The translations under genes and the position numbers were made by a program. This document shows, piece by piece, positions 32,910 through 51,256 of a stretch of DNA of 64,000 bases. The notes below the pieces were generated by a model that was not told the origin of the DNA, did no database searches, and saw only the letters and a list, made by a program, of their open reading frames with translations. The DNA is from an uncultured Candidatus Saccharibacteria bacterium (lineage in GTDB: Bacteria > Patescibacteriota > Saccharimonadia > Saccharimonadales > 2-12-FULL-41-12), in the NCBI GenBank assembly GCA_947085855.1, contig CAMTYB010000001.1, forward strand, positions 564,427 to 628,426, in the 5' to 3' direction. Positions within the stretch are counted from its first letter, which is position 1; each line of letters starts with the position of its first letter.

Positions 32910-32911
32910 TG

Positions 32912-34290: not shown

Positions 34291-34338
34291 AAAAAGCTCC
34301 AACTTTAGTTGAGGCGTTTTTCTTTGCAGGGTATGTCC
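34291..34338. repeat. copy 1 of a ~48-bp repeated terminator-like element (A-run / imperfect hairpin GCYCCAAC-TTN-GTTGAGGC / T-run)
   Basis: About 42/48 identity with 34941..34988, read directly. Confidence 0.6.
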
Positions 34339-34414
34339 ATTCGAATTGGAATCCCTCATCAGAACCAAAAGCCGACGGAAGGAGTTATCGAGGGCAATAG
34401 TATACTAGGTTACC

Positions 34415-34780: not shown

Positions 34781-34843
34781 ATTTTCTCCATATGATTAAA
34801 ACTTAAGTACAATTATAACATTTGTTTTAATATATTACAAATT

Positions 34844-34860
34844 TAGCAGAGGGCAGGACT
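34844..34860. other. 17-nt imperfect copy (TAGCAGAGGGCAGGACT) of the 3-prime end of the tRNA at 51102..51176 (TAGCGGGGGCAGGACT); candidate distal att remnant
   Basis: Exact 10-mer GGGCAGGACT plus flanking TAGC shared with the tRNA gene. Sits at the low-G+C transition just before the SIR2 gene. Confidence 0.35.
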
Positions 34861-34940
34861 ATAGTTTCTCGCTGGGTTCGACATACTATTCTCGCTAACC
34901 GCTCGATTATTGAACGTTCGCAGCCTAGACTCTGCACAAG

Positions 34941-34988
34941 AAAAAAGCCCCAACTTTCGTTGAGGCGTTTTTCTTGGTAGAGCATGTC
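34941..34988. repeat. copy 2 of the ~48-bp repeated terminator-like element
   Basis: See copy 1. Confidence 0.6.
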
Positions 34989-35179
34989 GGTCTGGAACCT
35001 CACTATAGAGGTGAGTGAGACAAATGAGACACAGAACGCCTTAAAAGGGGATGTTTCATTTTTTGCTGGCTAACAGTTATGTTTATGACATACATATCGT
35101 AAAACCGAACAAATCCCGCACTTGCTCCGCTTAATAGTATTATTCCATCGGAATAGCCACTGAATCCTTGCGAAAGTGG

Positions 35180-36211
35180 CTATTTTGCTTTCTGCTCGGC
35201 ATCAATAAGCGGCTTATACCACTTAGCCATGTCGTCAAAATTGGCAAAGGCCTGCGGCACAGGATTATTGGATATAAACTTAGCTTCCCAGTACTGATTC
35301 CAGTAAGCCTCAATTGAACGTCGAGGATGTTTGGTAATGAATGAGTCATAAAAACTATCAAGCACATCAAAGTGGTGGGTATGGATAAAGGGGTCCCAGG
35401 TTTCCCGAAGCTTATCATGATCGGCACCCGGGCGGTTGATAATTTCAGTCTGCTCCATTGCCCGGTCATTGTTATCACCCCAGCCTTTCTTTAGTAGCTC
35501 AATGGCCTCTTTGTCAGTTGTTGGAGCACTATAGCCAAAGGCCGTAAACATGAAACAACCCTTCAAATAAAATCGGGCTGCCTGCCACTCGCGTTTAATG
35601 AAGCTGTCTGCCTGATAATCTTTGTTTTCAACCGGGTATAGTAACTCAGAAGGCATGAATGGTTCCCGGCACTTGCTACACGGTCGACCAGCCAACCCGC
35701 TCGTATTGTCTTTCCCGCAGAAGCCCACAGTTACATTACCATGTAAAAAGAACAGCTTCGGGAAGCTCGTGGTAATGCCAAGTTTAGCTAGCCGGATTCG
35801 GGATTGCATCAAAAACGGATCCCAATTAAACGTAAAAATAGCATCTTTATCACGCAGGGATAGATTGATTATGTCGTATAGGTTCGGCTCATCCGTCAGC
35901 TCAAGCTCCGAAAAATATTCACGCACCAGTGAATCAATCTTGCGCAATTCTTCAGATGGACCTAAGCCGAACAGTTTTGAATAAGCAGCCTCAAAATCTT
36001 GTACTGCCAGTACTTTTAAGTTGTCAGGAAATAGGTCTACCAGCTTTAGACCTTCGGCTACATCGCGAAGCAGCGGTACTGTCCGGCCATACTTATCACC
36101 GTCAGGCAAGGCGGCTTTACTTGCTCCAGCCCCCAGTAGAAGTACATGCGGCTTACCATGAAACGGGTTAGCAATTTCCTGTTCAACGGTGATTTCGTAG
36201 CCAGACGTCAT
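35180..36211 (-). CDS. SIR2-family (SIR2_2 / ThsA-like NADase-type) domain protein, stand-alone
   Basis: VLLLGAGASKAA (GAGxS), IFTFNWDPF (TTNYD-equivalent), FFLHGNV (HG motif), CFMFTAFGYSAPTTD (ThsA FLFVGFSFTDPNLD) with ThsA-like spacing. 22 nt downstream of the LexA-like gene. Confidence 0.65.
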   Translation of the reverse strand: MTSGYEITVEQEIANPFHGKPHVLLLGAGASKAALPDGDKYGRTVPLLRDVAEGLKLVDLFPDNLKVLAVQDFEAAYSKLFGLGPSEELRKIDSLVREYFSELELTDEPNLYDIINLSLRDKDAIFTFNWDPFLMQSRIRLAKLGITTSFPKLFFLHGNVTVGFCGKDNTSGLAGRPCSKCREPFMPSELLYPVENKDYQADSFIKREWQAARFYLKGCFMFTAFGYSAPTTDKEAIELLKKGWGDNNDRAMEQTEIINRPGADHDKLRETWDPFIHTHHFDVLDSFYDSFITKHPRRSIEAYWNQYWEAKFISNNPVPQAFANFDDMAKWYKPLIDAEQKAK

Positions 36212-36233
36212 ATAAAAGCCTTTAATTCATTAG

Positions 36234-36875
36234 CTAAGAGGCTAGTAACTCTGGTTTCCGTACGACTTGAATTACGGTACCACCAATTAAACCCTCCCAA
36301 TTATCTTGAGGATTTATGACTATCGGTTGAAAATCTTGCGAAGACTCAGAATGCAATACTATCAGCTCGTTTTCATAATCAAAATGGACACTTTTTATAT
36401 TTGATAGTCCTTCATGAATCACCGTCACTACCTCACCTTCTTTAGGTGTCTTTTTAGAACTGTCTACGATTACGTATGCTCCATTTTCTATATGATTTCC
36501 TCTAATTTTAGCTTTATTCATGGATTCGCCATCTACTTCTAATGCATAGAGGTCACTATAATTTGAGTTAGGCAGTAAAGATGCAGAAACTTTTAGAGTT
36601 CCAAGTTCATCTGATCCTGCAACGTGAGTTGCTGGTCCAGCATTTGCCTTTCCAAGAATTGGAATAGTAACTAAGCGAGCAGTTGTAGCGACTATGTTGC
36701 CCGCATTGCTAATGAGCCCTTCTTCCTTAAGCTTAATAATAATGTTCTTAACAATTTGCGGGTGCACGGAGCCACTGACTGGATTGGCTATTTGACGGCC
36801 AATTTCCCTATAACTCAGCTTATTGATATCCATCACCCGTGCTAAGCGTTGTATTTTTTCACGAGTTTCTAACAT
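36234..36875 (-). CDS. LexA-like / phage CI-like repressor (N-terminal winged HTH + C-terminal S24 self-cleaving peptidase)
   Basis: 213 aa. LexA-type DNA-binding domain (REIGRQIA....KLKEEGLI), Ser-Lys dyad GESM...(~25 aa)...KK. Confidence 0.7.
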   Translation of the reverse strand: MLETREKIQRLARVMDINKLSYREIGRQIANPVSGSVHPQIVKNIIIKLKEEGLISNAGNIVATTARLVTIPILGKANAGPATHVAGSDELGTLKVSASLLPNSNYSDLYALEVDGESMNKAKIRGNHIENGAYVIVDSSKKTPKEGEVVTVIHEGLSNIKSVHFDYENELIVLHSESSQDFQPIVINPQDNWEGLIGGTVIQVVRKPELLAS

Positions 36876-36937
36876 ATTCCTATATTAACAGAGGAGAAGC
36901 GTATTCGTCAATTAGAGTTGATTAACTATATTATTCT

Positions 36938-36966
36938 TGACAGCCCCCTGTCAAAACTCCTATAAT
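36938..36966 (+). promoter_or_regulatory. consensus sigma-70-type promoter (TTGACA-17 nt-TATAAT) whose -35 lies inside a perfect palindrome TTGACAG-CCCC-CTGTCAA (putative operator of the adjacent LexA-like repressor)
   Basis: TTGACA 36938..36943, palindrome 36938..36955, TATAAT 36961..36966, read directly. Divergent from the repressor gene. Confidence 0.6.
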
Positions 36967-37098
36967 TATTGGTAGCTAATGTGTGAAATAAACATATAGC
37001 AAAATCGCCGCGAAAGCCCTAGGAAAGCACAAACGCAGCGATTTATTGGACGATTGAGTCGTCCTCTCTATATTAACAAATAATGGAGGGTAAACACC

Positions 37099-37212
37099 AT
37101 GGGTAAAACCACCAAACCAACACCAAAGTATCGAGACGCCGGCTCAGGCCAATACGTCAAACCTTCATATGCGAAATCGCATCCGAAGACAACGGTTAAG
37201 GAGAGCAAATAA
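37099..37212 (+). CDS. small Lys/Pro-rich protein (37 aa) with a strong Shine-Dalgarno, first gene of the repressor-controlled rightward transcript
   Basis: GGAGGG 8 nt upstream of the ATG. Stop overlaps the next ATG (TAATG). Confidence 0.35.
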   Translation: MGKTTKPTPKYRDAGSGQYVKPSYAKSHPKTTVKESK

Positions 37213-37475
37213 TGGCTGACCGAGCAGTTAACCGGGCACGACATGATAGCGACGGCGATGTCACTGCAATCGGTAATCCAATCATGGCATGGTCGCCTCG
37301 TCTGAAGCGCGACGCGATCGATGACATAGAAAATGATGTGCACACCTATTATGTTCCGTGGAAAGTCAGTGGGCGATCGGAAATCAGAGTGGTTAATGGC
37401 CCTAACGGTAAGTATCTGCGAACTGATCGAGACGATACCCCAAAAAACAATCTTGATGATTTGGATGAGTGTTAG
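37212..37475 (+). CDS. small acidic hypothetical protein (possibly DUF3892-like)
   Basis: 87 aa ORF translationally coupled to the preceding small ORF. Confidence 0.35.
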   Translation: MADRAVNRARHDSDGDVTAIGNPIMAWSPRLKRDAIDDIENDVHTYYVPWKVSGRSEIRVVNGPNGKYLRTDRDDTPKNNLDDLDEC

Positions 37476-37716
37476 CGTGAGCTGTTTACTTGACACATCA
37501 AAAGCATAAACTTTAGTATGTAATTGTACCTTTACACATAAATCAAATACGACGTTAAGTAAGGAATCACCTGAAAAAGTCGAACTAATTATGGGCCACA
37601 AAAAAGCTTTAAAGCTTGGTCAATCGATTGTTCGGCATGGGGTGATTCTTTTAATTTAGAGCCATTCCACGCCTCATGTAGAGGTACGTTTATCAACTAA
37701 ACGGAGGAATGGAGCT

Positions 37717-39060
37717 ATGAATAGTTCACTTTCAAATCAAAACAAAAATATCCAAATTAAATCAGTTAAAGTCAGCGAGCTAAAGGCAGCTGAATATAAC
37801 CCTCGCAAATGGAGTGAAAACTCCATAGCGCAACTAACAAAAAGCATTCAGCAGTTCGGATTAGTTGATCCTATTCTTGTAAATGGCTCTCCCGCAAGGA
37901 AGAACATCGTAATCGGCGGGCACTTCCGGCTAAAGGTTGCTAAGGATCTCGGCTATAAAGAAGTTCCGGTTGTCTATTTGCATATTCCGGATATTGAGCG
38001 GGAGCGAACACTTAACTTGCGGCTTAACAAAGCGGTCGGAGACTGGGACTGGGATTTACTCAAGGAATTTGATGAGTCACTATTAGATGAAGTTGGTTTC
38101 ACCAGTGAAGAACTTGATACCATCTTTGATCTCGATGATGACGAACCGGAGCAATTCGACCTCGATAAGGAACTCAAGAAATTAAATATTTCTGAAATCA
38201 AAGTTAAAAAAGGTGACGTCTACCAGCTGGGTGATTCCAGACTTATGTGTGGAGACTCAACCATTGAAGCAGAAATGCTGAAATTAATGAACGGCGAAAA
38301 AGCCGATATGTGCCTAACTGATCCTCCGTATATTTTAGATTATCTAAAAAGCGGTATTCGAAAAGGCAAACCAACTGAAGGCTTTGGTGCAAAACGCAAT
38401 CGTAAATATCTGGAAACTGACGAATTGCCGGACGACTTTACCGAACTGTGGATGGGCGGTATAGCAAAAATTGCAAAACCGGACTTCAGTATTATCGTAT
38501 ACGAAAATTGGAAGAATATCCCAGTTATCTGGGAAGAAATGGCTAAACGCTGGAAAGTAAAAAACATGATTGTTTGGCATTTGCCGAACCGACACCAAGG
38601 GTTCGGTGGTAAGTATAAGTTCTTCTCCAAACACGATATCGCGATGGTCGGTGCCAGCGGAGAAGTGCAATATAACCACGAAACTGAACCGGATGGTTTG
38701 CAGGAAGAGTATGAAACAGCTTTGTATGCGATAGCTGGGAAGCCCCATTGGCAAAACTACTCAAAAGGTAAACATCAACCAACTGACTTTATCGACTTCA
38801 ACGCAGCAGATGAAAAAAGCAGCGGGCAGGGAATCATATTCGGAGTAAAGCCACTTGAGATACTGATTCCATATATAAAGGTACTCACTAAACGCGGTGA
38901 CCTTATAGTTGAACCGTTCTGTGGCAGTGGCAGTACGCTTTGTGCCGCGACGAAGCTAAAACGCCGATGCTACATAATGGAAAAATCTCCGGTGTATGCT
39001 GAGGTGGCCATGGACAGATGGGAGAAAATGACTGGGCTAAAACGAAAGAAACTGTCATGA
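37717..39060 (+). CDS. ParB-like nuclease domain fused to an N6/N4 DNA methyltransferase (phage-type orphan MTase)
   Basis: N-terminal ParB/Srx fold (IVIGGHFRL). MTase motifs DPPY (CLTDPPYI) and FCGSGST. Confidence 0.8.
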   Translation: MNSSLSNQNKNIQIKSVKVSELKAAEYNPRKWSENSIAQLTKSIQQFGLVDPILVNGSPARKNIVIGGHFRLKVAKDLGYKEVPVVYLHIPDIERERTLNLRLNKAVGDWDWDLLKEFDESLLDEVGFTSEELDTIFDLDDDEPEQFDLDKELKKLNISEIKVKKGDVYQLGDSRLMCGDSTIEAEMLKLMNGEKADMCLTDPPYILDYLKSGIRKGKPTEGFGAKRNRKYLETDELPDDFTELWMGGIAKIAKPDFSIIVYENWKNIPVIWEEMAKRWKVKNMIVWHLPNRHQGFGGKYKFFSKHDIAMVGASGEVQYNHETEPDGLQEEYETALYAIAGKPHWQNYSKGKHQPTDFIDFNAADEKSSGQGIIFGVKPLEILIPYIKVLTKRGDLIVEPFCGSGSTLCAATKLKRRCYIMEKSPVYAEVAMDRWEKMTGLKRKKLS

Positions 39061-39458
39061 GTACGGCTACTAATAAAACGAAGGTGCTAGAGCAGCTCCG
39101 TAAAACTCCGCTGGTGCAAGTTGCTTGCCAGCGGGCGGGGATTGGCCGGGCAACCTATTACCGTTGGTTGAAAGCCGATGAAGCGTTTGCCGAAGCAGCT
39201 TTCGAAGCAATAGATCAGGGCACATCACTGGTAACAGATATAGCCGAAAGTCAGCTTATTAATGCCATTAAAGACCAGAATATGACGGCGATTATCTTTT
39301 GGCTGAAGCACCACCATGCAGCTTATGAAACTAGAGTCAGAGTTGATGGCCGGATAAAGCATCAAACCGAAGAATTAACACCCGAGCAGTCCGATTTGAT
39401 TGAGCGGGCTCTTAAAAACGCTGGCTTACTGCTGGCAGAAAGTGAGACAATCGAATGA
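39057..39458 (+). CDS. terminase small subunit-like HTH protein
   Basis: 133 aa. HTH QVACQRAGIGRATYYRWLK. ATGA overlaps with both the MTase stop and the TerL start. Start moved to the Met that overlaps the MTase stop. Confidence 0.45.
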   Translation: MSTATNKTKVLEQLRKTPLVQVACQRAGIGRATYYRWLKADEAFAEAAFEAIDQGTSLVTDIAESQLINAIKDQNMTAIIFWLKHHHAAYETRVRVDGRIKHQTEELTPEQSDLIERALKNAGLLLAESETIE

Positions 39459-41017
39459 AATACGAATCACCCTTCTCGCCTGAACTATGGCGGGAGATAA
39501 AAACTACGCGAAGTGTGCGTGTGAAGCTAGCTAGTGAGAGTTTATATAACTTTGCACACATCTATTTTCCAGGATACTTTGGATATGCAACTGCACCGTT
39601 CCAGCGTGAAATGTATATGATGCTAGAAGATCCAAATATTCGTCATCTTGGTATTGTCAGTTTTCGTGGTAGCGGTAAATCCAGTATTGTAACCACGTTC
39701 TTCTTGATGTGGGCAATACTCGGCAAGCAGCAAAAGAAATACGCTCTAATAGCCAGCCAAACTCAAGTCCAAGCCCGTAAGCACTTAGCTAATGCCAAAC
39801 AGGAATTTGATAGCAACGAACTGCTTGGAGATGACTTTGGTCCACTTAAGGAAACCAGTGATGAATGGGGTTCAATGTCACTGGTGCTACCAAAATACGG
39901 TGCACGAATCAGTGCCGTATCAAGCGAGCAAAGCATCAGAGGTACCAGGCACGGTTCACACAGGCCTGATCTAGTAATTGCCGATGATGTTGAAGACCTG
40001 CAATCGGTTAAAACTAGTGAAGGCCGGGAGAAAACCTTTAACTGGTATACCAGTGAGATATTGCCAGTTGGCGATCATACAACTAAGTTTGTATTGATAG
40101 GTAACTTACTTCATACCGACTCACTGATGATGCGGATGAAAGCCTTTAGCGAACGTCAGGCTGATCGATTTGTATTCAAAGAGTATCCTCTGCTCGATGA
40201 AAACGGAGTTTGTTTGTGGCCTGGTAAATATGACACCCCGGAAGCTATTGCGCGGGAAAAGATGGAGGCACCGAGCGAACGGGCATATTACCGAGAGTAT
40301 CTGCTAAAAATTCTGCCTGACAATATGCAGATAGTTAAGCCAGAAAACATTAAATATTACGATAATATTCCTCAGCAGCTGGCTGGCGGTTCATACCGCG
40401 TGGCAATTAGCGTTGACTTAGCAATATCCAAGAAAACCTCTGCCGATTATACGGCAATTGTCGTACTTGAAAAGCATGGCTACGGCAAAGATACCAAAAT
40501 CTACGTTCATCCTTACCCGATTAATAAGCGTAATCTCTACAGCGAAACCGTTCAGGACATAGCTTCTCTAAAAGCCCGACATACTTCAGCCGACATATAT
40601 ATTGAAGATGTAGGCATGCAGCGGGCTATTATAGAAATGTTAAAGCAAGAAAATATACCAGCTGAAGCAGTTCCGCTTAATGGGCGGGATAAAGAAGAGC
40701 GCTTGCAGGTGGCTTCCTTTTGGATTATTAATGGTACCGTTCAGTTTCCATACGAGGGCTGTCAAAAACTACTGGAACAAGTCATTGGTTTTGGGGTTGA
40801 AAGAGATGACCTTCTGGACGCGCTAACGCTCGGCATCATTCACCTTATGGAACAAAAGAATAAAGGACCAAGTATACGAGTTGGGTCAATTAGAGGGACG
40901 GTGTTTGACCGAGATATGCGTATGAAGTCAGTTTTTAGCGGAGCAGGTCGTTACCGCGTGTCTACTGCTTCAGATGAAGCTTTCTTCAGCTCGCCCACGG
41001 GGATTAGCATTTATTGA
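39455..41017 (+). CDS. phage terminase large subunit
   Basis: Walker A VSFRGSGKSS, Walker B LVIADDVED, C-terminal RNase-H-like nuclease Asp residues (ISVDLA, IEDVG, LDALTLG). Confidence 0.75.
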   Translation: MKYESPFSPELWREIKTTRSVRVKLASESLYNFAHIYFPGYFGYATAPFQREMYMMLEDPNIRHLGIVSFRGSGKSSIVTTFFLMWAILGKQQKKYALIASQTQVQARKHLANAKQEFDSNELLGDDFGPLKETSDEWGSMSLVLPKYGARISAVSSEQSIRGTRHGSHRPDLVIADDVEDLQSVKTSEGREKTFNWYTSEILPVGDHTTKFVLIGNLLHTDSLMMRMKAFSERQADRFVFKEYPLLDENGVCLWPGKYDTPEAIAREKMEAPSERAYYREYLLKILPDNMQIVKPENIKYYDNIPQQLAGGSYRVAISVDLAISKKTSADYTAIVVLEKHGYGKDTKIYVHPYPINKRNLYSETVQDIASLKARHTSADIYIEDVGMQRAIIEMLKQENIPAEAVPLNGRDKEERLQVASFWIINGTVQFPYEGCQKLLEQVIGFGVERDDLLDALTLGIIHLMEQKNKGPSIRVGSIRGTVFDRDMRMKSVFSGAGRYRVSTASDEAFFSSPTGISIY

Positions 41018-41065
41018 CAAGCAGACTAATATACTATACCCTATAGGGGTATAAGGAGATAGAGT

Positions 41066-41536
41066 ATGGAAGAAGGCAAAGCATTAAATTCAATGGCAAA
41101 AAGCGCAACGCTTCATTGTCTAACAGGTTGTGCGATCGGTGAAATTTTAGGTCTCGTCATTGGAACAGCGATAGGGCTTAGCACTATAGCTACAATTGCC
41201 TTAGCAGTTACATTAGCCTTTTTCTTTGGGTTTTTACTGTCAACACTGCCATTACTTAAAGTAGGGTTAGGTTTCTTCTCCGCGCTCTCAATAGTTTTTG
41301 CCGCTGACACATTGTCAATCGCAACTATGGAGGTGGTAGACAACGCAGTGATGGCTATAATACCCGGGGCAATGGAAGCAGGATTGGTTAATCCGCTTTT
41401 TTGGATCAGTATGCCGATTGCATTGACAGCAGCATTTTTTGCGGCTTACCCCGTAAATAAGTATCTATTAAAAAGAAATAAAGGCCATGCGTTGACCATG
41501 AAGTATCACGAAGGTCATGGAAGCCACCAGCATTAG
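41066..41536 (+). CDS. DUF4396-like membrane protein with a C-terminal His-rich tail (metal-associated)
   Basis: 4 TM helices and a YHEGHGSHQH C-terminus. Precedes csoR. Confidence 0.5.
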   Translation: MEEGKALNSMAKSATLHCLTGCAIGEILGLVIGTAIGLSTIATIALAVTLAFFFGFLLSTLPLLKVGLGFFSALSIVFAADTLSIATMEVVDNAVMAIIPGAMEAGLVNPLFWISMPIALTAAFFAAYPVNKYLLKRNKGHALTMKYHEGHGSHQH

Positions 41537-41546
41537 GAGAATTACT

Positions 41547-41831
41547 ATGACTAAATATGGATACGCCGAAAATAAAGTTTCAATCAATAAGCGACTTAAA
41601 CGAGCCGAAGGTCAGGTACGCGGTATTGCGAGAATGGTCGAAGAAGACAAATACTGTATAGATATACTAACTCAAATCACAGCAGCACAAGCCGCCTTGG
41701 ATAAGGTTGGTTTGCAACTACTATCTGAGCATACTAAGCACTGTCTATCGAATTCAAAAATCGGACCAAATGGCATTGATGAAAAGGCCGATGAAATGGT
41801 GAGCGCAGTAGGTAGAATGCTATCTCGATAA
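41547..41831 (+). CDS. csoR: CsoR/RcnR-family copper-sensing metalloregulator
   Basis: YCIDIL...EHTKHC (Cys-His-Cys triad). AGGAGA SD 7 nt upstream of the chosen ATG. Confidence 0.8.
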   Translation: MTKYGYAENKVSINKRLKRAEGQVRGIARMVEEDKYCIDILTQITAAQAALDKVGLQLLSEHTKHCLSNSKIGPNGIDEKADEMVSAVGRMLSR

Positions 41832-41853
41832 ATTAATTTACTAGGAGAATATT

Positions 41854-42258
41854 ATGGAAACTAGATCACTATTAATAGGAATTAGCAGCTTTATGGCTGG
41901 AGGCTTGTTAGTCTCAATTGCTGCAGTTACATTTGAAAAAGATAAGGAGACTGCATCAAATAGCTCTATGTCGTCTAGTATGCAGATGTCAGCAGATTCA
42001 TTAAAAGGTAAGAGCGGTGATGACTTTGATAAATCATTTATTACTGAAATGATTGCTCATCATGAAGGAGCAGTTGAAATGGCTAAATTAACTTCATCAA
42101 ATGCCAAACACGATGAAATAAAACAGTTATCTAACGATATAATTTCAGCCCAAGAAAAAGAAATTGGTCAAATGAAGCAGTGGCAAATGGATTGGGGTTA
42201 TAATAACTCTAATGACACTATGCAAATGGATCACTCAAAAATGAATATGGGACAATAA
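41854..42258 (+). CDS. DUF305 four-helix-bundle (copper-binding) secreted protein
   Basis: DFDKSFITEMIAHHEGAVEMAKL....IISAQEKEIGQMKQW motif. Confidence 0.7.
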   Translation: METRSLLIGISSFMAGGLLVSIAAVTFEKDKETASNSSMSSSMQMSADSLKGKSGDDFDKSFITEMIAHHEGAVEMAKLTSSNAKHDEIKQLSNDIISAQEKEIGQMKQWQMDWGYNNSNDTMQMDHSKMNMGQ

Positions 42259-42259
42259 C

Positions 42260-42655
42260 TTGGTCAAACCGAAACGGCTTGTAGATATTGCTGCAATAAT
42301 AGGCGTAATCTTCTTTATAGCTATAGTCGTTTATTTATCAAATAAAGAAGAACCAAAAGATAATCAACAGTTAAGTAATGTGAACGCAGCTCAGACGATT
42401 TACTATAATGATGGTGGATTTGATAAGGCATCAGTAACGATTGCTAAGGGTGAAACCGTAAAGTTTGTAAACAATACCGACAATGATCTATGGGTTGCTT
42501 CAGATCCCCACCCTCGCCATACTGATTTGCCAGGATTTGACGCACTCGGTCGAGCAAACGATGAATACGTATTTACATTCGATAAAGCTGGGACTTGGAA
42601 ATATCATAATCATAGCGCGGCAAGCCGTGAGGCCACAGTCGTGGTTACTGAGTAG
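42260..42655 (+). CDS. membrane-anchored cupredoxin-like domain protein (type-1 Cu site apparently lacking Cys)
   Basis: ETVKFVNNTD......GTWKYHNHSAASREATVVV resembles a plastocyanin-like strand pattern without the Cys ligand. Confidence 0.35.
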   Translation: MVKPKRLVDIAAIIGVIFFIAIVVYLSNKEEPKDNQQLSNVNAAQTIYYNDGGFDKASVTIAKGETVKFVNNTDNDLWVASDPHPRHTDLPGFDALGRANDEYVFTFDKAGTWKYHNHSAASREATVVVTE

Positions 42656-43552: not shown

Positions 43553-43560
43553 AAGTTATC

Positions 43561-44238
43561 TTACATCGACATTTGATGACCTTGCATCGAAGGTCCGCTT
43601 GAGCTAATATCATAACCCCACATCTTTGCCCAATCTTGCATATTGCCGATTTCAAGTGTCTGAGCATTAAAGATGTCTTCACTTAATTTTTTGATTTCAT
43701 CATGTTTGGCATTTTGGGCTGACTGGTTTGCCATATCGATTGCGCCCATATGATGGGCAACCATATCAATAATAAACTGCTTATCTAAATCGTCACCGGT
43801 TTTACCTTTCAGGCTCGCGGCCATAGCATCAATACCAGACTGACTCGGTTCTTTGTATTCATAACCCCACATCTGCGCCCAGCTTTTCATATCGGCAATT
43901 TCTCTAGTTTGCGCTTCAATAATTTGTCCGGCAAGCGTACGCAGTTCAGTGTGTTTGGCTTCCGTATCAACGAGCTGTGCCATAGCAATGGCACCCGCAT
44001 GATGTTCCGACATTAAGGTGATAAATGCCTTATCATATTCATCTCCAGTTTTTCCTTTCAATCCATCCGACATAGACATCATGGAAGAATTAAGGCTATT
44101 TTGGTCATTTGATGGAGCAGAGTTATTAGTCTGCTCTGCTTTCTTATCATCCTTTTTTAACGCCGCAGTTCCTGCACCTGCTAAGGCTAGTAAAATTATT
44201 ACCCCTATTAAAATTGTTAACTTTTTTGATTTACTCAT
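43561..44238 (-). CDS. secreted protein with two tandem DUF305 domains
   Basis: Two copies of D..F...M..HH.GAI.MA.....AKH.E.......I...Q..EI..M..W. Confidence 0.7.
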   Translation of the reverse strand: MSKSKKLTILIGVIILLALAGAGTAALKKDDKKAEQTNNSAPSNDQNSLNSSMMSMSDGLKGKTGDEYDKAFITLMSEHHAGAIAMAQLVDTEAKHTELRTLAGQIIEAQTREIADMKSWAQMWGYEYKEPSQSGIDAMAASLKGKTGDDLDKQFIIDMVAHHMGAIDMANQSAQNAKHDEIKKLSEDIFNAQTLEIGNMQDWAKMWGYDISSSGPSMQGHQMSM

Positions 44239-44251
44239 AAAATATTCTCCA

Positions 44252-44815
44252 TCAGGCCGTAGCCTTATTAGGTATGCTTGTTATTCGGATTAATGTTGGC
44301 GCTGCTTTATATATTGATCGTAACGCTATCATAATTGCCAAAACGTTAAGTCCAATTGTTAACATCTGCAACCGGCTATAACCTGCTCCTATGTAACTTC
44401 CCCCAGTTCCACCAACAAGACTTATAAGCGGTGCAAGTAAAGATCCCCCGCACGCTATGCAGTGCGAACTGATGAGCATGGTAAGTGTACCAGCAACCCT
44501 GCCTTTAGTCGATTTTGTCACGTTACGCATAAAGCGTATGACTTGAAAGTTAACCGCTAAAACTACAGACAGAATAAAAATACTAAAGGTTACTGGTTCA
44601 AAGAAAAAGCGTATAACACTCGCGTAAATATCTGTCAAAAAACCTAGTTTATCCAGCGGTGAAAGCAATGGTTGGTTAAATGTTAACTCCAAAATGAGCG
44701 CGATATTTGGTACTAATAACAAAAAACTTAATACTAAAAACCAATAGTATACAAAGCGTCCCCTTTCACCGGGTAAGCTAAGTAATCTTGCAATTGCTGT
44801 TGGTATACGTTTCAC
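44252..44815 (-). CDS. polytopic membrane protein with a CIACGG motif
   Basis: 187 aa, 5 hydrophobic segments. Confidence 0.4.
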   Translation of the reverse strand: MKRIPTAIARLLSLPGERGRFVYYWFLVLSFLLLVPNIALILELTFNQPLLSPLDKLGFLTDIYASVIRFFFEPVTFSIFILSVVLAVNFQVIRFMRNVTKSTKGRVAGTLTMLISSHCIACGGSLLAPLISLVGGTGGSYIGAGYSRLQMLTIGLNVLAIMIALRSIYKAAPTLIRITSIPNKATA

Positions 44816-44824
44816 GGATTTATC

Positions 44825-45352
44825 TTATGCACCTGCCTCAGGTGCTTTGCCGACATTTTGTCGGTACTGATCCATCAGTTTTTGCTCATCATAATTATCG
44901 AATTCAACGATATGATTCCATGATGCCATTACGATCGGTTTTTCTTGACCTTCCCTTGGCATAACTAATGCTTCAGATGACTGAAAATCTTTACGAGCAA
45001 ACGGTTTTGTAAATAAGCCCTTAAGCTTTTGCACTGTAGCCGGATCTGTATCGGGGCGATAGCTTATGACAACGCCACCATGCTCAAGGTTGTGAATATA
45101 GTCTTGAGCAGGTAGTTCTGATGGGTAGGCTTGATACGGAGCCACAACAGTATGTGGACCCGAGGTAGGTATTTCTGCCTTGTAATCCTTATACTCAGGT
45201 TGTCCTTGTTCGAGGTGATCGCGACCTTCATCGGCTTGATCATGCCCCAGGCGGCTTACCGGCGGCGGGGCGTCCTTCTTTTGAAATGCAAGTAAGCTAG
45301 CCATTCCAATGACCGCGAATGCAATAATTCCTATAAAAACTTTGTTTGACAC
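44825..45352 (-). CDS. DUF3105 domain membrane-anchored protein
   Basis: TSGPH...YIHNLEHGGVVISY motif typical of DUF3105. Confidence 0.55.
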   Translation of the reverse strand: MSNKVFIGIIAFAVIGMASLLAFQKKDAPPPVSRLGHDQADEGRDHLEQGQPEYKDYKAEIPTSGPHTVVAPYQAYPSELPAQDYIHNLEHGGVVISYRPDTDPATVQKLKGLFTKPFARKDFQSSEALVMPREGQEKPIVMASWNHIVEFDNYDEQKLMDQYRQNVGKAPEAGA

Positions 45353-45433
45353 GTTGTAAGCTCCAGTTAGTTAAACATTAAAATATACAGTCAAACCGAA
45401 ATAAATCGACATGACTTAAATAATGAATAAGGC

Positions 45434-45790
45434 CTAGTTTCGGAATTTACCGTATTCGAGTATTAGATCTGGCGGTCTACGTTTCAAATATGCCCAAAAT
45501 AAGACAGCGAAGGCGAGGCTATATGCAAAGTTTGTTAAAACAAGTTGGTTCTTTAAAATAGCAAAAGCTGGATACGGATCGTTATCTTCTTCTTCAATCT
45601 GTGGTTGCTGTTGCTTACCATTAACCATTGGAGCACAAACAGATTGGCACGGGTTATTATGACTCATCTTCATGCTGTCGTGAGGCATAGTTTGTTGCAT
45701 CAGAAGAGAATGGCCTGCGCCGACACCTAAAACGAGAACTAATCCGGTAGCTAAAGCTAGAAGTAATTTATGCAATTTTTTATGTATCAT
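45434..45790 (-). CDS. Met/His-rich small membrane protein (candidate Cu-binding)
   Basis: MQQTMPHDSMKMSHNNPCQSVCAPM stretch between two TM helices. Confidence 0.4.
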   Translation of the reverse strand: MIHKKLHKLLLALATGLVLVLGVGAGHSLLMQQTMPHDSMKMSHNNPCQSVCAPMVNGKQQQPQIEEEDNDPYPAFAILKNQLVLTNFAYSLAFAVLFWAYLKRRPPDLILEYGKFRN

Positions 45791-45852
45791 AACGATGTAG
45801 GTATTATATCAAATTTACTAAGCTATTAAATCTTTGCTGTCAGATTAGGTGC

Positions 45853-47307
45853 TTATTTATTTCTGCGGCATTCTGACTGCATAAATTCTATAGGAGCGTA
45901 ATTGTCGGTTAGCTTACGACTTTCAGACAAACCAAGAGTTATGCCGTCTTTTGGAAGCCAGTTTTGTTCGTTCTGACTATATGTAATAACTATATTCTGG
46001 CTTGATTCTAATGTTGTGTCTTTCAGAGGATATGCTTTTGAGAAGGGAAAATAGTTCTGGTAAGAGTTGTGAATGGAAGACAAAAGTTCACCGCAGGATC
46101 CTTGTTTTGAGCCGATAATATTGGCTGCTACTATGCCTCGCGGGCTTAAGGATCGTTTTAGCTGTTTAGCGTATTCATCCGTGGTTAAAGAAAAAGGTAT
46201 CAGCGTATCAGTGTAAACATCCACAAGTACAATGTCGTACCGCTTACTATTTTTGTTTAAGAATATACGTGCGTCTTGATTAATTACAGATACATTGGGC
46301 AGATCGGTATAACCAAAATACTTTTTAGCAATGGCAAGAAGCTCAGGGTCTATCTCGACAACATCAATTGCTGCTTCGGGATACTTTTGAGCCAAATGTT
46401 GAGGCAGTGTAAAAGCTCCTCCGCCTAGAATCAAAATACTGTCTTTTTTTGGTGCATTTTCTACCAGCTCTGCCATTTTTCGGGTGTAATCGAACACCAG
46501 TTCATTATCGCCGTCGCGATAAATGCCTGATTGTAACCCGCCGGGCCCAGCGGTAATGGCGCGAACCGGCCTGCCCTTATAGTCAATATCAACAATATTA
46601 TATGTTGCTGAGGGCGTATCGATTGTTGCGGCAATAGCAGGGTTCTGAGTGACAGATAGAGACAGTAAGGCAACAATCGCTATCAAAACGGCCGCGATGA
46701 GGCGTTTTTTTACTAAACGTTGCGGTTCGATTAACCAGCTGCTACAAAATAACAGGAAACCTATAATTAAGAGCGTTTCTTTTGAACCAATGTAGGAAAG
46801 GAAGATAAAACCGGTGAAAAAAGTTCCGGCGATGCTGCCGAGTGCGTTTAATGAACTTAGAGAAGCAATTGTGGTTCCGGTTGTTTGCAAGGATACATTT
46901 TTAAGCCGGGCAAGGTAGGGGCTTACGGCACCAATCAGAAAACTGGTTGGTGAAAAAAGCAGTAATGAAGCAATTAAGCCTTGTAATCGCGGATCATTGG
47001 TTAACTGCGGAATGTCAGTAAGAACAGCAGGAGCAATAATCAGTGTTGATACGGTAGCAAATGAACTTGCGAGAAGTATCAAGGCTATATCGAGTTGCTC
47101 TACGCGTTTGTCCGCAATCTTACCCCCGAATATATAGCCTGCAGATAGGGCGGCAATAATAACTCCAATAATACTTGTCCATGCGTAAATTGAACTTCCA
47201 ATAGTTGGAGCAAGCAGGCGAGTAGCAACTAATTCATATGTAAGTAGACTAAAGCCAGTTATAAAAGCAATGTAATCGTAACGGTGTAATGATTTAAGAC
47301 TCAACAT
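45853..47307 (-). CDS. fused polytopic membrane domain + spermidine/spermine synthase-like aminopropyltransferase domain
   Basis: N-terminal ~200 aa with 6-7 TM. C-terminal SAM-MTase-like fold with VLILGGGAFT and DVVEIDP. Confidence 0.55.
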   Translation of the reverse strand: MLSLKSLHRYDYIAFITGFSLLTYELVATRLLAPTIGSSIYAWTSIIGVIIAALSAGYIFGGKIADKRVEQLDIALILLASSFATVSTLIIAPAVLTDIPQLTNDPRLQGLIASLLLFSPTSFLIGAVSPYLARLKNVSLQTTGTTIASLSSLNALGSIAGTFFTGFIFLSYIGSKETLLIIGFLLFCSSWLIEPQRLVKKRLIAAVLIAIVALLSLSVTQNPAIAATIDTPSATYNIVDIDYKGRPVRAITAGPGGLQSGIYRDGDNELVFDYTRKMAELVENAPKKDSILILGGGAFTLPQHLAQKYPEAAIDVVEIDPELLAIAKKYFGYTDLPNVSVINQDARIFLNKNSKRYDIVLVDVYTDTLIPFSLTTDEYAKQLKRSLSPRGIVAANIIGSKQGSCGELLSSIHNSYQNYFPFSKAYPLKDTTLESSQNIVITYSQNEQNWLPKDGITLGLSESRKLTDNYAPIEFMQSECRRNK

Positions 47308-47379
47308 ATGACTATTATATGCCCAGGACTCATTAGATAATCGAAAATTGCCTAGACTTCCATAACCAGTGCGGTACTG

Positions 47380-48660
47380 TTGTGTTGTATGGAAACAAAA
47401 GCACCCGAACTCAAATACTGTCTGTATGCACGTAAATCGAGCGAATCAGACGAACGACAGATAATGTCGATTGATTCACAGCTTAACGAAATGAAGCTGA
47501 TTGCTCAAAAAGAAGGGTTGAATATAGTAAAAATCTTAGAGGAGAGTCACTCCGCTAAAGAATCGGGTAAGCGCCCAATCTTTAATGAGTTACTTAGTGG
47601 ATTTAGAAATGATGAGTATAACGCATGCTTAACGTGGGCACCTGATAGAATGAGCAGAAATGCCGGGGATTTGGGGTCACTAGTAGACCTTATGGATAGT
47701 AAGAAGCTAGCTCAAATCCGTACGTATTCGCAGACGTTTACAAATAATCCTAATGAAAAGTTCCTTCTGATGATTCTCTGCTCACAGGCCAAGCTTGAAA
47801 ACGATAACCGCGGCTTGAATATTCTACGAGGTATTAAAAATAAATGTGAAATGGGATGGCGGCCTGGCGTTGCACCACTAGGTTACATGAATCGCCACTT
47901 TGGAGGGGTTAAAGATATAATACCCGATCCAGATAGAGCACATGTCATTACGGAGATATATCAGAAAGCTGGCTATCACGGCTGGAGTGGTCGGCGTTTG
48001 AAAGAATGGTGCGACGAAATAGGTTTCACGAATCGGTCAGGCAAACCAGTAGCTTTGAGTCAAATCTTCTTGATTCTCATGAACCCGTTCTACTACGGTG
48101 AATTTGAGTATCCAGAAGGTAGTGGCAAATGGTTTAAGGGATCGCACGAGCCCTTAATATCCAAAGATATGTACGAACTTGTCCAACAATTTAGAGGAGC
48201 ATATAAAGGTAAATGGGGATCCAAACAGTTTGCGTACCGCGGTTTATTGCAATGTGGACACTGTGGAGGTGAAGTTACAGCAGAGGAGAAATTTAAAAAA
48301 CTTAATAACGGTGAAATTAACCGTCATGTATATTATCGATGCACAAAGAAAGTAGATTTAAAATGTCCAGAAAAGTACGTGAATGAAAAAATACTTGAAG
48401 AATTAATAGAGAAATTTATTACTCAGAATTTGGTGAAGCTCAAGATTGCAGATTCACTCAGAATAGATATTGAACGGCACTATGTTGTAGCTGAATCACT
48501 TGCCGATTACTACAAAGTATCGATGAAACTAGATAAGCCGCTGATTGAATACACGCGCTATGTGGTAACAAAAGGCAGGTTTGAAGAAAAAGTTGCTTTT
48601 ACAAAGGGCATTACTAGTAAGCTACTTATTAAAGATGGAGAAATTGTTTTTGCGAAGTAA
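47380..48660 (+). CDS. large serine recombinase (resolvase catalytic domain + recombinase domain + zinc ribbon/coiled coil)
   Basis: YARKSSESD....SIDSQ catalytic Ser region, Cys pairs CGHCGG....C..C. Confidence 0.75.
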   Translation: MCCMETKAPELKYCLYARKSSESDERQIMSIDSQLNEMKLIAQKEGLNIVKILEESHSAKESGKRPIFNELLSGFRNDEYNACLTWAPDRMSRNAGDLGSLVDLMDSKKLAQIRTYSQTFTNNPNEKFLLMILCSQAKLENDNRGLNILRGIKNKCEMGWRPGVAPLGYMNRHFGGVKDIIPDPDRAHVITEIYQKAGYHGWSGRRLKEWCDEIGFTNRSGKPVALSQIFLILMNPFYYGEFEYPEGSGKWFKGSHEPLISKDMYELVQQFRGAYKGKWGSKQFAYRGLLQCGHCGGEVTAEEKFKKLNNGEINRHVYYRCTKKVDLKCPEKYVNEKILEELIEKFITQNLVKLKIADSLRIDIERHYVVAESLADYYKVSMKLDKPLIEYTRYVVTKGRFEEKVAFTKGITSKLLIKDGEIVFAK

Positions 48661-48768
48661 AACTTAGTTAGAGTAAACTTGTTGATTCAATATTGCAGCC
48701 TAGAAGATCTAGACCGACTACAGTTAATATGCTAATGTATATAGGCTAAGATAAAAAATAAAAACAGT

Positions 48769-49938
48769 ATGAATATAAAAAGTTTACGTTTAAATAGAAC
48801 AGTTTTAATCATTAGTTTAATTGGCGTAGTTTTATTTTCTGCGTCTAATCTCCCTTTTGTTCAGGCTCAATCGCAACAAATCAAGGATCTTCAGCAGCAA
48901 ATTGATCAAGTTCAAAACGACAGTAATCAGAAACGGCATGAAGAAGGCGTACTGAGTATCGAGGCTTCATCGTTAAGTGATGCAATAAATAAGCTGCAAG
49001 GACAAATTAATTCTTCACAAGCACGTATTAGCCAACTTCAGAGTGAAGTAAACACACTTAAGCAGCAAATTACCGAGGCAGAAGCAGAGCTTGCTAAACA
49101 AAGAGGTATACTCGGTGAAACAATAAAAGCAATGTATCTTGAGGGTGATATAACAACTTTGGAGATGCTTGCAACAAGTAAAGACTTGAGCGAATTCTTT
49201 GATAAGCAACAATACCGTGAAAGTGTTAGTTCAAAAATCAAGGTAACACTAGATAAAGTAACCCAACTCAAACTAGAGCTAAATACAAAACGCGAAACAG
49301 TTGAAGCAACGCTTGCTGAACAACAAGCCTTACGAGATCAATTGGCGTCCCAGCGATCTGAAAAAGATCGAATATTAGCGCTTAATCAAGATCAACAAAA
49401 TCAGCTAGAGAATCAAATAAAGGCAAACAGTGGAAAGCTTGCTGAACTCAAGAAAAAACAAGCAGAAGCTGAAGCAGCGCTTGCTCGTTCGTTGAGTAGC
49501 GGCAGTTACAAGACTGCTCCGGCTGGACCAGTTTCAGCAGGTAGCGTAGTGGGAGCGGTCGGTAATACAGGACTTTCTTCTGGCGCACATCTTCATCTCG
49601 AAGCACGTAGTGGCAGTAGTGTAGTGAATCCAGTCCCTTATATAAAGTCCAAGCCGGTTAATATGCCTCCTGGATGGATTAGCCAAGGCTACGGAGTGGC
49701 TAATTCCTTATATCGCAGCGGTTATCACGGAGGCATTGACTACGCGTCTTCTAACGGACAGCCTATATTTGCAATTGACGGCGGTCAAATGTATCGTGGT
49801 TGCTCAAACCAAATGCTCGGTACCCGCAATAACGATTACGGCTATGTGGCAATTGTAGAGCATAGCAACGGCGTAAAAAGTATCTATGCTCACATGAGTG
49901 GCGGCCCTGCTACTTGTAACTACAATACGTATTACTAA
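48769..49938 (+). CDS. secreted M23 (lysostaphin-like) metallopeptidase with an N-terminal coiled coil
   Basis: YHGGIDY (HxxxD) and GAHLHLE (HxH) motifs. Long Q/L-rich coiled coil. Confidence 0.75.
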   Translation: MNIKSLRLNRTVLIISLIGVVLFSASNLPFVQAQSQQIKDLQQQIDQVQNDSNQKRHEEGVLSIEASSLSDAINKLQGQINSSQARISQLQSEVNTLKQQITEAEAELAKQRGILGETIKAMYLEGDITTLEMLATSKDLSEFFDKQQYRESVSSKIKVTLDKVTQLKLELNTKRETVEATLAEQQALRDQLASQRSEKDRILALNQDQQNQLENQIKANSGKLAELKKKQAEAEAALARSLSSGSYKTAPAGPVSAGSVVGAVGNTGLSSGAHLHLEARSGSSVVNPVPYIKSKPVNMPPGWISQGYGVANSLYRSGYHGGIDYASSNGQPIFAIDGGQMYRGCSNQMLGTRNNDYGYVAIVEHSNGVKSIYAHMSGGPATCNYNTYY

Positions 49939-50022
49939 TCTAGGTCGGTGGCAGAAAACTTACAGCAAGTAACCCATTTTAGAATTTAAAATGTAACGAT
50001 TAAACCTTAAATAGGAGTCGTT

Positions 50023-50352
50023 ATGGATCAAGAGATGCAAGAATGCATAAATAACTGTAATAATTGCAAACAAGTATGTCTAGAAACGCTTGAATATTGT
50101 AAGGATAAAGGTGGTGAACACGCTGATCCGGATCATCTAAAATTATTAGAAGATTGTGCCAAGATATGTGAGACGAGCGCAGACTTTATGGAACGCGAGT
50201 CTAATTTTCACACTAAGACATGTGCCGTTTGTGCTGAAATATGTGAACGCTGTGCTGAGGCTTGCGAGAAAATGGGAGACGATGAGCAAATGCAGAAATG
50301 TGCGCAAGCTTGCCGCGAATGTGCCGAATCATGTCGCCAGATGAGTAGTTAA
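50023..50352 (+). CDS. Cys-rich four-helix-bundle copper-binding/storage-like protein (DUF326/Csp-like)
   Basis: 109 aa with 17 Cys in CxxxC/CxxC spacing on predicted helices. Confidence 0.55.
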   Translation: MDQEMQECINNCNNCKQVCLETLEYCKDKGGEHADPDHLKLLEDCAKICETSADFMERESNFHTKTCAVCAEICERCAEACEKMGDDEQMQKCAQACRECAESCRQMSS

Positions 50353-50357
50353 AGTGG

Positions 50358-50825
50358 TTATGTACTCTTTTTATTTTTCAAAGGAACGGTAGAAGATGCG
50401 ATGCCGATTGCTACTGCAATAACAACTGCATTTTTAATAATATATTGACCTTCCAAGGTAGGTATGAGAAAAGCTTGCCATGTATACTCCGGCACAAGTA
50501 TAAGCGGTGAACATACGATGCCCATATGAACAAGTAGCATTGGTATTACGATGCGTGTTAATTTTGGAAATAGAAAAAGCAGTCCAACTATACATTCGAG
50601 CAAAGCCAGGACAATAAAGAGAAAATCAAAGTATTGCCCTCCCACCGTTTTGTCTACTAGAGCTTGAGCGAGGGGACCGGCTGGACTTAAGCTGAGTAAC
50701 TTTATAAGTCCAAACCAAAAGAATATTAAGAATACAGAAAATCTTGCAACTGGTATAAATGTCCGCTGAAAAAAGGCAATTAACTTCAAGTCAAGCGATT
50801 CATAGTTGATCTTTTTATTTGGCAT
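50358..50825 (-). CDS. DoxX-like 4-TM membrane protein
   Basis: 155 aa hydrophobic ORF. Weak DoxX-like topology. Confidence 0.35.
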   Translation of the reverse strand: MPNKKINYESLDLKLIAFFQRTFIPVARFSVFLIFFWFGLIKLLSLSPAGPLAQALVDKTVGGQYFDFLFIVLALLECIVGLLFLFPKLTRIVIPMLLVHMGIVCSPLILVPEYTWQAFLIPTLEGQYIIKNAVVIAVAIGIASSTVPLKNKKST

Positions 50826-51101
50826 AAGCAGTATAAGTATAGTTGTATTGATTACTGGGTGACAAGTAAGAAACGGTCAAGGAACACGGTCAGTACTATA
50901 GATGTCCAATCGTTATATAGGCTTACGGTCACTTATAGAACCGAACTAAGAAGTAAAATGCCCTTTTCTACAGATATAAAGGTTCGAATGTTTACTCGCT
51001 ATCATAGCAAGTAGACTCGAACTCAAAATAAATAGGGTTTGTAAGGGGTAAATAGAAAGACCGGTCATAGGAACCGGTCAGGTGTTTTTGAGTGTCCAAT
51101 C

Positions 51102-51176
51102 TGGTAGCGGGGGCAGGACTCGAACCTGCGACCTTGTGGTTATGAGCCACACGAGCTGCCACTGCTCTACCCCGCG
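51102..51176 (-). tRNA. tRNA-Met (CAT), initiator-like
   Basis: The reverse complement CGCGGGGTAGAGCAG...GGCTCATAACC...GGTTCGAGTCC...CCCCGCTACCA closely resembles E. coli tRNA-fMet, including an unpaired C1 (C1:U72). Confidence 0.8.
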
Positions 51177-51256
51177 ATAGGGTGCCGTGCTTGCCGAATA
51201 ATCACTCAGCAAAACAGGAAACTAAATTGTACCAAACAGAGGTCGATATGTCAAGA

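Follow-up and report, generated by a model that had tools for sequence, protein, structure and literature searches.

Genes and composition of the island

The window analysed here is a 64,000-nucleotide stretch of the genome of an uncultured Candidatus Saccharibacteria bacterium. It holds a mobile island of 16.1 kb (34975-51107), integrated at an initiator-like tRNA-Met and delimited by comparison with relatives. An earlier note, made from the letters alone, had proposed a horizontally acquired element integrated at a tRNA, and this is borne out by the foreign composition of the island and by relatives in which the terminator at its left border stands next to the tRNA. The genes of the island, from left to right, are as follows.

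35180-36211, minus strand: stand-alone protein with a SIR2 fold by model and motifs, cargo
36234-36875, minus strand: predicted S24 (LexA/CI-like) autocleaving repressor, with the Ala-Gly site, the GESM serine and the lysine present
36923-36968: candidate operator, a divergent promoter pair inside a 21-nt imperfect inverted repeat
37212-37475, plus strand: small DUF3892 open reading frame (ORF), head of the rightward operon, in a slot that holds variable small genes across the family
37717-39060, plus strand: ParB N-domain (ParB_N) fused to an N6/N4 DNA methyltransferase, family core gene
39018-39458, plus strand: TerS, family core gene, a weak call (PHROG 3.5e-9, Pfam below cut-offs)
39455-41017, plus strand: TerL, family core gene (phrog_38, 2.6e-81)
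41066-47307: cargo block between TerL and the recombinase, a slot with 0-15 variable genes in other members
47380-48660, plus strand: large serine recombinase (LSR), presumed integrase, family core gene, with the YARKSSE catalytic-serine motif
48769-50825: second cargo stretch, past the recombinase on the tRNA side, coding for the M23 peptidase, a Cys-rich DUF326 protein and, on the minus strand, a membrane-like protein of 155 aa
48769-49938: the M23 peptidase, sole possible lysis-like gene of the element

The phage hallmarks named in the earlier note, a CI/LexA-like repressor, a ParB-methyltransferase fusion, TerS and TerL, were all recovered, TerS weakly. The operator it placed at the repressor fits the divergent consensus promoters at 36923-36968: the plus-strand promoter (TTGACA-18-TATAAT) scores 12/12 and the minus-strand promoter 11/12. 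Domain matches likewise agree with its large serine recombinase, copper genes and M23 peptidase. The recombinase matches Resolvase (PF00239, 9.8e-18), Recombinase (PF07508, 3.8e-10), Zn_ribbon_recom (PF13408, 3.2e-9) and the phrog_95 integrases (3.7e-56), and the motifs of both recombinase and repressor are intact. A tyrosine recombinase domain is found in no island ORF. Searches with Pfam and PHROGs gave no portal, capsid or tail match inside the island, again as the note had stated. The closest named relatives of the TerL come from Saccharibacteria metagenome-assembled genomes; the closest deposited phage TerLs are about 25% identical, and no cultured relative helps.

The cargo block behind TerL opens with genes for DUF4396, CsoR, DUF305, a cupredoxin-like protein (a weak match) and a BNR protein. 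Its minus-strand genes encode a second DUF305 protein, a 187-aa protein, DUF3105, a 118-aa protein and a spermine-synthase-like methyltransferase. The copper set of the island thus consists of DUF4396, CsoR, the two DUF305 proteins, the weak cupredoxin-like match, DUF3105 and DUF326.

A SIR2 defence gene had also been called, and this call stands in part. Sequence profiles lend it no support: the protein at 35180-36211 has no match in Pfam, PHROGs, PADLOC or, by sequence, the PDB. It has 4,323 homologues without a Pfam domain, some of them outside the candidate phyla radiation (CPR), including one Ktedonobacterales record. A single-sequence structure model was unusable (predicted local distance difference test, pLDDT, 34). 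The AlphaFold (AF2) model built on 34 homologues reached a pLDDT of 86.8, and its 39 matches in the PDB at E<=1e-3 are all sirtuin or SIR2-domain chains (sirtuins, CobB, ThsA, AVAST5), with TM-scores of 0.3-0.5. Invariant in the 34 homologues are GAGxS, N129-x-D131 (NxD), H157-G158 (HG) and three Cys. A SIR2/sirtuin fold is supported by the model and these motifs, and a defence role is a candidate function only.

The island differs from its flanks in composition. Its G+C content is 41.5% (34975-51101), compared with 46.5% for 1-28216 and 46.9% for 51177-64000 (Mann-Whitney p = 8e-5, 2-kb windows), and its tetranucleotide correlation with the flanks is 0.74, compared with 0.93-0.95 for control flank chunks. 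These calculations confirm the lower G+C of the A+T-rich block described in the earlier note at 34.8-51.1 kb, but its left limit had been placed too late: the drop begins near 28.2 kb and not exactly at a 17-nt repeat (34844-34860), as had been claimed. The 6.8 kb to the left of the island (28217-34974) are also foreign by composition (43.2% G+C, tetranucleotide correlation 0.73) and contain short ORFs, mostly without family matches, with an esterase-like match at 30417-31556. They may be older island material accreted at the same tRNA-Met. The right flank carries at 53552-58273 one operon for an SLT_3 lysozyme-like protein, a 224-aa protein and a 1018-aa fn3-containing protein, unrelated to the island.

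Junctions of the island and older scars at the tRNA-Met

The ends of the island and their surroundings contain the following features.

34290-34337: second copy (D2a) of the terminator plus core-like sequence, 88% over 48 nt, outside the present element
34844-34860: 17-nt repeat, apparently a decayed and displaced copy of the tRNA-Met 3' end, in the chromosomal flank; orthologous to TGGTAGCGGGGGCAGGAC at -138 in metagenome locus L176
34941-34974, minus strand: intrinsic terminator (terminator scan), forming today the chromosomal (B) arm of attL; its counterparts in L176, L193 and L203 stand next to the tRNA
34975-34980: attL common core TGGTAG (on the minus strand, CTACCA of the tRNA), the left junction, where homology to L050 starts
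34981-35062: conserved non-coding left end, presumed P' arm of attP, homologous to the left end of L050
51012-51101: terminal stretch on the right side, presumed P arm of attP; its homologue in L180 is the 92 nt to the left of an identical tRNA
51102-51176, minus strand: initiator-like tRNA-Met(CAT), 3' end toward the island; its last six bases (plus-strand 51102-51107) are the attR core

The insertion point is CTACCA, the last six bases of the tRNA-Met, and the tRNA stays whole. Only these six bases are duplicated at the island ends, the longer tRNA fragment at 34844-34860 belonging to an older event. The target tRNA begins CGCGGGG and has a C1/U72 mismatch, which we take to be like that of bacterial initiator tRNA, going by E. 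coli tRNA-fMet; the second tRNA-Met of the window (6906-6981) differs and is elongator-like.

The left junction was placed by comparison with two kinds of relatives. The first is element L050, whose recombinase is the nearest relative of the window recombinase (73% DNA identity). The outermost left end of that element (L050:97-184) shows 83% identity to window 34974-35062, and the homology begins at TGGTAG. To the left of TGGTAG the two differ, each having an intrinsic terminator of its own directly after CTACCA on the minus strand. The second kind came from a scan of metagenome contigs with the exact 75-nt tRNA-Met, which gave 35 loci. In L176, L193 and L203, which have the identical 75-nt tRNA, the sequence abutting the tRNA is identical to window 34930-34980 at 42-44 of 51 positions, with compensatory changes in the stem. 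Because this near-identical terminator abuts the tRNA in all three, the terminator at 34941-34974 must have been contiguous with the tRNA before insertion. It now lies 16 kb to the left, and the tRNA-Met is served by a hairpin terminator in the right end of the element (51012-51101). Locus L176 is free of the island and colinear with window 34815-34980 (119/166 positions). The break in homology with L050, the terminator of the relatives and the island-free L176 together identify the element as 34975-51107, with a 6-nt core and the whole tRNA kept. Alignment with relatives, rather than a repeat, thus strongly supports a left junction at 34975-34980 with a 6-nt common core.

The attL/attR pair of the earlier note has to be given up, as the true junction lies 115-130 nt further right and has a core of 6 nt. 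The empty-site comparison it suggested could be made with L176 and puts the junction at 34975-34980, not at 34844. From these alignments the predicted attP is GAGTGTCCAATC-TGGTAG-AGCATGTCGG and the predicted attB is GGCGTTTTTCT-TGGTAG-CGGGGGCAGG. In longer form, attP would read GAGTGTCCAATC-TGGTAG-AGCATGTCGGTCTGG and the empty attB GAGGCGTTTTTCT-TGGTAG-CGGGGGCAGGAC.

Protein searches gave no empty site. The 340-aa protein of the right flank has no relatives in genome contigs or metagenome contigs and no record by exact look-up, and all contigs with the exact TerL or the exact RNA-recognition-motif (RRM) flank protein carry the island. Locus L197 keeps the synteny of the right flank and has no island within the 1.97 kb available. 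Among the 35 metagenome loci with the identical tRNA-Met, two (L196, L180) have signs of an LSR element.

The 17-nt repeat at 34844-34860, described in the earlier note as a copy of the tRNA 3' end, matches the tRNA at 15/17 positions with one gap and has an exact core of 10 nt. This match alone is at chance level: of 200 simulated 31-kb sequences, 52 reach its score, and a 13-nt stretch at 23741, inside an ABC ATPase gene, matches better, in our judgement by chance. It is the colinearity with L176 that points to a tRNA origin. There, an intact TGGTAGCGGGGGCAGGAC fragment corresponds to it, and just 138 nt without any island separate this fragment from the intact tRNA. Because the same fragment lies near the tRNA in an island-free locus, the repeat, tRNA-derived as the note had said, is best taken as the scar of an earlier integration and not as attL of the island.

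Such scars are common at this site. Partial direct copies of the tRNA 3' end occur within 200 nt at 19/33 related sites, and reversed controls gave none, which makes this tRNA-Met a recurrent integration target. The copies (L169-L203) are stacked in layers, some being full 3'-end copies at -120 to -195 and others T-arm copies (-66 to -92) with a long hairpin after them. Repeated integration seems to have left them behind as tiny scars or miniature units. Further to the left in the window, 48-nt direct repeats (34290-34337 and 34941-34988) bracket a lone 121-aa gene (34415-34780), for which no homologue was found; the similarity between the repeats runs over about 75 nt with indels. The copy at 34290-34337 may mark where a still older, tandem element once joined its neighbour, an element of which deletion has spared only this gene. 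A scan of 33.8-35.4 kb for tRNA-like or other known RNAs returned just sub-threshold terminator-like matches.

Relatives in CPR/Patescibacteria and in phages

At least 579 contigs encode a relative of the TerL in a TerL-alignment scan of one representative genome per species. The best 80 TerL-bearing genome loci belong mostly to CPR/Patescibacteria of many classes, judging by record title. About 30 of the 80 are titled otherwise, as Gammaproteobacteria, Bdellovibrionales, Pseudomonadales, Burkholderiaceae or Nitrospirota (e.g. L017, L019-L021, L023, L031, L032, L034-L039). Their TerLs interleave with CPR-titled ones, so either the titles are mis-assigned or the family reaches beyond CPR. ORFs were predicted in every locus retrieved and grouped by BLASTP; the counts that follow refer to 79 non-redundant genome loci, inspected over ±10 kb.

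These loci share one gene order: (S24 repressor) ParB-methylase, TerS, TerL, variable cargo, large serine recombinase, tRNA. The ParB-methylase is present in 73 of the 79, TerS in 65, the LSR in 60 and the S24 repressor in 25. The LSR lies downstream of TerL on the same strand in 59/79 loci, directly after it in 27, and otherwise with 1-15 variable genes between. In 24/24 genome loci and 7/7 IMG/VR loci, the first tRNA beyond the LSR faces it with the 3' end. Portal, protease and major-capsid clusters are found within 10 kb in none of the 79 genome loci. TerL keeps its Walker A/B motifs and its acidic nuclease residues without change throughout the family. A good example is the saccharibacterial locus L003 (TerL 84% identical), where the same ParB-methylase, TerS and TerL are followed by different genes, a homologous LSR and a tRNA-Ser with its 3' end toward the LSR.

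The ends of other members were sought by comparing a probe (the tRNA 3' end plus 20 nt downstream) with the left arms, using 60 shuffles as control. Seven members, 9.6-20.2 kb in size, are bounded by direct repeats of 18-26 nt that overlap the tRNA 3' end, a score that 0/60 shuffles reach.

L003: repeat 25 nt, element 13.1 kb
L018: repeat 22 nt, element 16.6 kb
L061: repeat 24 nt, element 20.2 kb
L072: repeat 18 nt, element 13.6 kb
L076: repeat 24 nt, element 9.6 kb, the smallest member
L077: repeat 18 nt, element 12.2 kb
L139: repeat 26 nt, element 14.4 kb

In these seven the tRNA is intact at one end and part of it reappears, displaced, at the other, with the integrase inside, which is the Islander-type signature. 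Their repeats measure 18-26 nt, and the core in the window 6 nt. Selected proteins of the bounded elements, compared with Pfam and PHROGs, include methyltransferases, helicase/nuclease pairs, a second LSR and unknowns. Structural, tyrosine-integrase and replication proteins are absent among those scanned, and because no tyrosine integrase occurs there the LSR is the only candidate integrase.

Cargo varies within the family. CopA is found in 12 loci and CsoR or DUF305 in 7 further loci, together with many restriction-modification (R-M) and other defence-type genes. Copper and defence cargo, which the earlier note considered unusual for such a genome, is therefore recurrent. The gene at L012:2438-3547, in the left arm of another element, is about 90% identical in DNA to the SIR2-fold gene of the window, and the TerLs of the two elements are 48% identical. 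This indicates a probable recent exchange of cargo between family members. Because one cargo gene is so similar in two very different elements, we view the element as mobile.

Several features vary between members. A conserved Cys-rich, zinc-ribbon-like protein of about 360-400 aa is the leftmost gene of some 24 elements (L003:4169-5362, L050:185-1381, L044:2038-3108). It has no match in Pfam or PHROGs and is a candidate for a replication or excision function. The window element does not have it; the SIR2-fold gene occupies that position. In several loci (L095:594-3752, L011, L012, L014, L024, L048, L098, L099, L106, L113) the TerL cluster contains two neighbouring ORFs. Those of L095 are both full length (525 and 520 aa), which looks like a tandem TerL paralogue and not a frameshift; that L095 is a circular permutation of a minimal element was considered and is not supported. 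Two or three family elements or extra serine recombinases can occur on one contig (L102/L124, L097/L112, L120/L126; L054, L058, L083, L151), some apparently back to back, as tandem accretion at attachment sites would produce.

Portal, protease and major-capsid clusters, identified by PHROGs, occur only on 18 IMG/VR contigs, related true phages whose TerLs are at most 42% identical. The phage order is (ParB-methylase, TerS) TerL, portal, protease, capsid, and the LSR is absent in all 18. By neighbour joining, 153 TerLs fall into a phage clade (17 phage and 3 unclassified sequences) and an element clade (102 elements and 28 unclassified sequences), the latter with no phage at all. We found no description of this family in the literature searched, which covered part of the journals.

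Interpretation and comparison with known systems

We read window 34975-51107, with moderate confidence, as an integrated representative of a conserved, phage-satellite-like family from CPR/Patescibacteria, whose integrative elements derive from phages and measure about 10-20 kb; the window island would be one copper-carrying member. More tentatively, and on balance short of what we would call probable, CPR/Patescibacteria could hold an ancient and apparently undescribed satellite lineage, with TerS, TerL and ParB-methyltransferase, no capsid and tRNA-targeting LSRs, serving as a main vehicle for their defence and metal-resistance genes. The earlier note had left the choice between a PICI-like phage satellite and a decayed prophage. 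A satellite-like element fits far better than a decayed prophage, the capsid-less set being intact in more than 100 loci and in one TerL clade.

A plausible life cycle can be outlined. The junctions strongly support insertion of the element by the large serine recombinase at CTACCA, where the initiator-like tRNA-Met ends. Also well supported is the layout in which an S24 repressor faces a rightward operon of ParB-methyltransferase, TerS and TerL, with the recombinase next to the attachment site. Slots between the core genes take variable cargo, here the copper-homeostasis set, the SIR2-fold protein and the M23 peptidase. The repressor would keep the element silent until SOS-type cleavage or infection by a helper phage allowed the packaging operon to be expressed. 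The recombinase could then excise the element, presumably with a directionality factor, and TerS and TerL would recognise the element's own DNA and load it into procapsids from a related, portal-bearing CPR phage.

Several points weigh against this interpretation. We saw neither a helper phage nor the element excised as a circle or packaged; a search of IMG/VR matched neither the predicted attP junction nor the left-end motif nor an excised form. A replication module (primase or replicase) was not recognised in the ORFs of the window element or in the scanned non-core ORFs of L076, which makes the source of a packaging substrate (a concatemer) hard to explain. We know of no described satellite that carries TerL without capsid genes, and the TerL of the element must dock on a foreign portal. 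Many genes of the elements are unannotated, the zinc-ribbon protein at the left end of many members among them. The att core of the window is just 6 nt, so its junction had to be placed by comparison with relatives, and dyad symmetry in the reconstructed attP does not rise above shuffles. Finally, the TerL tree is a simple neighbour-joining tree without support values.

The absence of replication and capsid-remodelling genes among the scanned proteins would also suit a resident, self-sufficient system, in which the terminase and ParB-methylase block packaging by infecting phages and anchor a defence island, or work like a gene transfer agent with capsid genes elsewhere. We think this unlikely, if deserving of attention. 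Defence-type cargo (R-M, helicase-nuclease pairs, a nucleotidyltransferase-like gene, the SIR2 fold) would be expected of such a system, and capsid genes at a distance would escape a view limited to 64 kb here and ±10 kb elsewhere. The elements are plainly mobile units, however, with different tRNA targets and bounding repeats. Signs of an element at just two of 35 identical tRNA-Met loci, and the scatter of TerL types over host lineages, do not suit a resident system, and an integrase combined with a repressor switch is the layout of an inducible element.

It is very improbable that the island is a decayed prophage, that is, a complete temperate phage that lost its structural, lysis and replication genes and gained the copper genes later. 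Its genes are typical of prophages, a related module precedes portal, protease and capsid in true phages, and the several older scars at the tRNA-Met demonstrate that decay happens at this site. Yet the same intact subset of genes recurs in the same order in over 100 loci of many CPR lineages, never with structural genes, and independent random decay would not converge on a single architecture. The element TerLs form a deep clade of their own with invariant catalytic residues, and complete repeat-bounded members measure only 9.6-20 kb. Remnants or pseudogenes of a structural module did not turn up.

A complete but unrecognised virus, autonomous and with a novel capsid encoded by unannotated ORFs, is scarcely credible. 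CPR viruses are poorly known, and conserved genes lacking annotation do exist in the family (the left-end zinc-ribbon protein, small genes upstream of the ParB-methylase). Against this, terminases of this kind work with a portal and an HK97-fold capsid, which are easily recognised in the related phages and absent here; the window element has almost no spare coding capacity, its unknown ORFs being 87-187 aa long, and the smallest member has 9.6 kb in all. Least credible is attL at the 17-nt repeat: the repeat is correctly oriented and covers a part of the tRNA (+3 to +19) similar to that in the repeats of L003 and L018, but the 131 nt up to 34975 are orthologous to L176 DNA between the same fragment and the intact tRNA, and neither the tRNA-abutting terminator, nor the start of L050 homology at 34975, nor the chance-level match agrees with it.

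If the satellite-like interpretation is correct, it has consequences for CPR, whose genomes are tiny, whose recognised mobile elements are few and whose viruses are poorly known. One modular family in hundreds of species would be a concrete route of gene flow, shuttling copper resistance, R-M and other defence genes between tRNA sites. Satellites would then include elements that come with a complete packaging motor and lack a shell. Natural serine integrases directed at tRNAs, with att sites already defined, would become available in large numbers; serine integrases are tools of genome engineering, also in the few Saccharibacteria that can be cultivated. Terminase-only calls of "prophages" in CPR genomes may often be such elements.

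Among known systems, the element most resembles the phage-inducible chromosomal islands (PICIs), including the Staphylococcus aureus pathogenicity islands (SaPIs), and the minimalist PICMIs: all are integrated islands of about 10-20 kb with an integrase at one end, a TerS of their own and accessory or defence cargo. As in PICIs, the repressor diverges from the packaging operon, and structural and lysis genes are absent. PICIs have a tyrosine recombinase, an Stl-type repressor and a primase-replicase (pri-rep) module. The present family differs in having TerL and the ParB-methyltransferase, a large serine recombinase, an S24 autopeptidase repressor and CPR hosts, and no pri-rep module was recognised in the window element. 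Capsid-forming PICIs (cf-PICIs) are alike in encoding both terminase subunits, by which they set their own packaging specificity (see also bioRxiv 10.1101/2025.02.11.637232); they also encode capsid, portal, protease and head-tail connectors, whereas capsid, portal and protease are found neither here nor in the 79 genome loci. The PLE of Vibrio cholerae, a phage satellite integrated by a large serine recombinase, shares that type of enzyme with our element. Unlike this family, PLEs target Vibrio cholerae repeats and not tRNAs, have their own replication initiator and helper-specific interference genes, and lack TerL; no sequence relationship between the window element and PLE was seen. PICMIs lack capsid-remodelling genes (PMC10803314), and none were found among the proteins scanned here either.

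The tycheposons of Prochlorococcus are another likeness, as tRNA-adjacent modular cargo islands of streamlined genomes with partial tRNA copies at their hotspots. Some are PICI-like with terS or a capsid gene, and those carried no cargo (bioRxiv 10.1101/2020.12.28.424599). According to the same source, tycheposons are defined by a lineage-specific tyrosine recombinase (a large serine recombinase occurs in 27/937 elements), often have replication genes and never TerL. With no tyrosine recombinase domain in any ORF, the window element is not a tycheposon.

In its integrase the element resembles phages of the phiC31, Bxb1 and A118 type, with the same Resolvase-Recombinase-zinc ribbon arrangement, a gene beside the attachment site and, in the window, a short core of 6 nt. 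Those, in contrast, are complete phages that enter protein-coding or intergenic sites, and a 2014 survey reported no known case of a serine integrase directed at a tRNA gene (PMC4383910). Unlike the phages of that group, several members of the present family carry 18-26-nt repeats that restore the tRNA 3' end.

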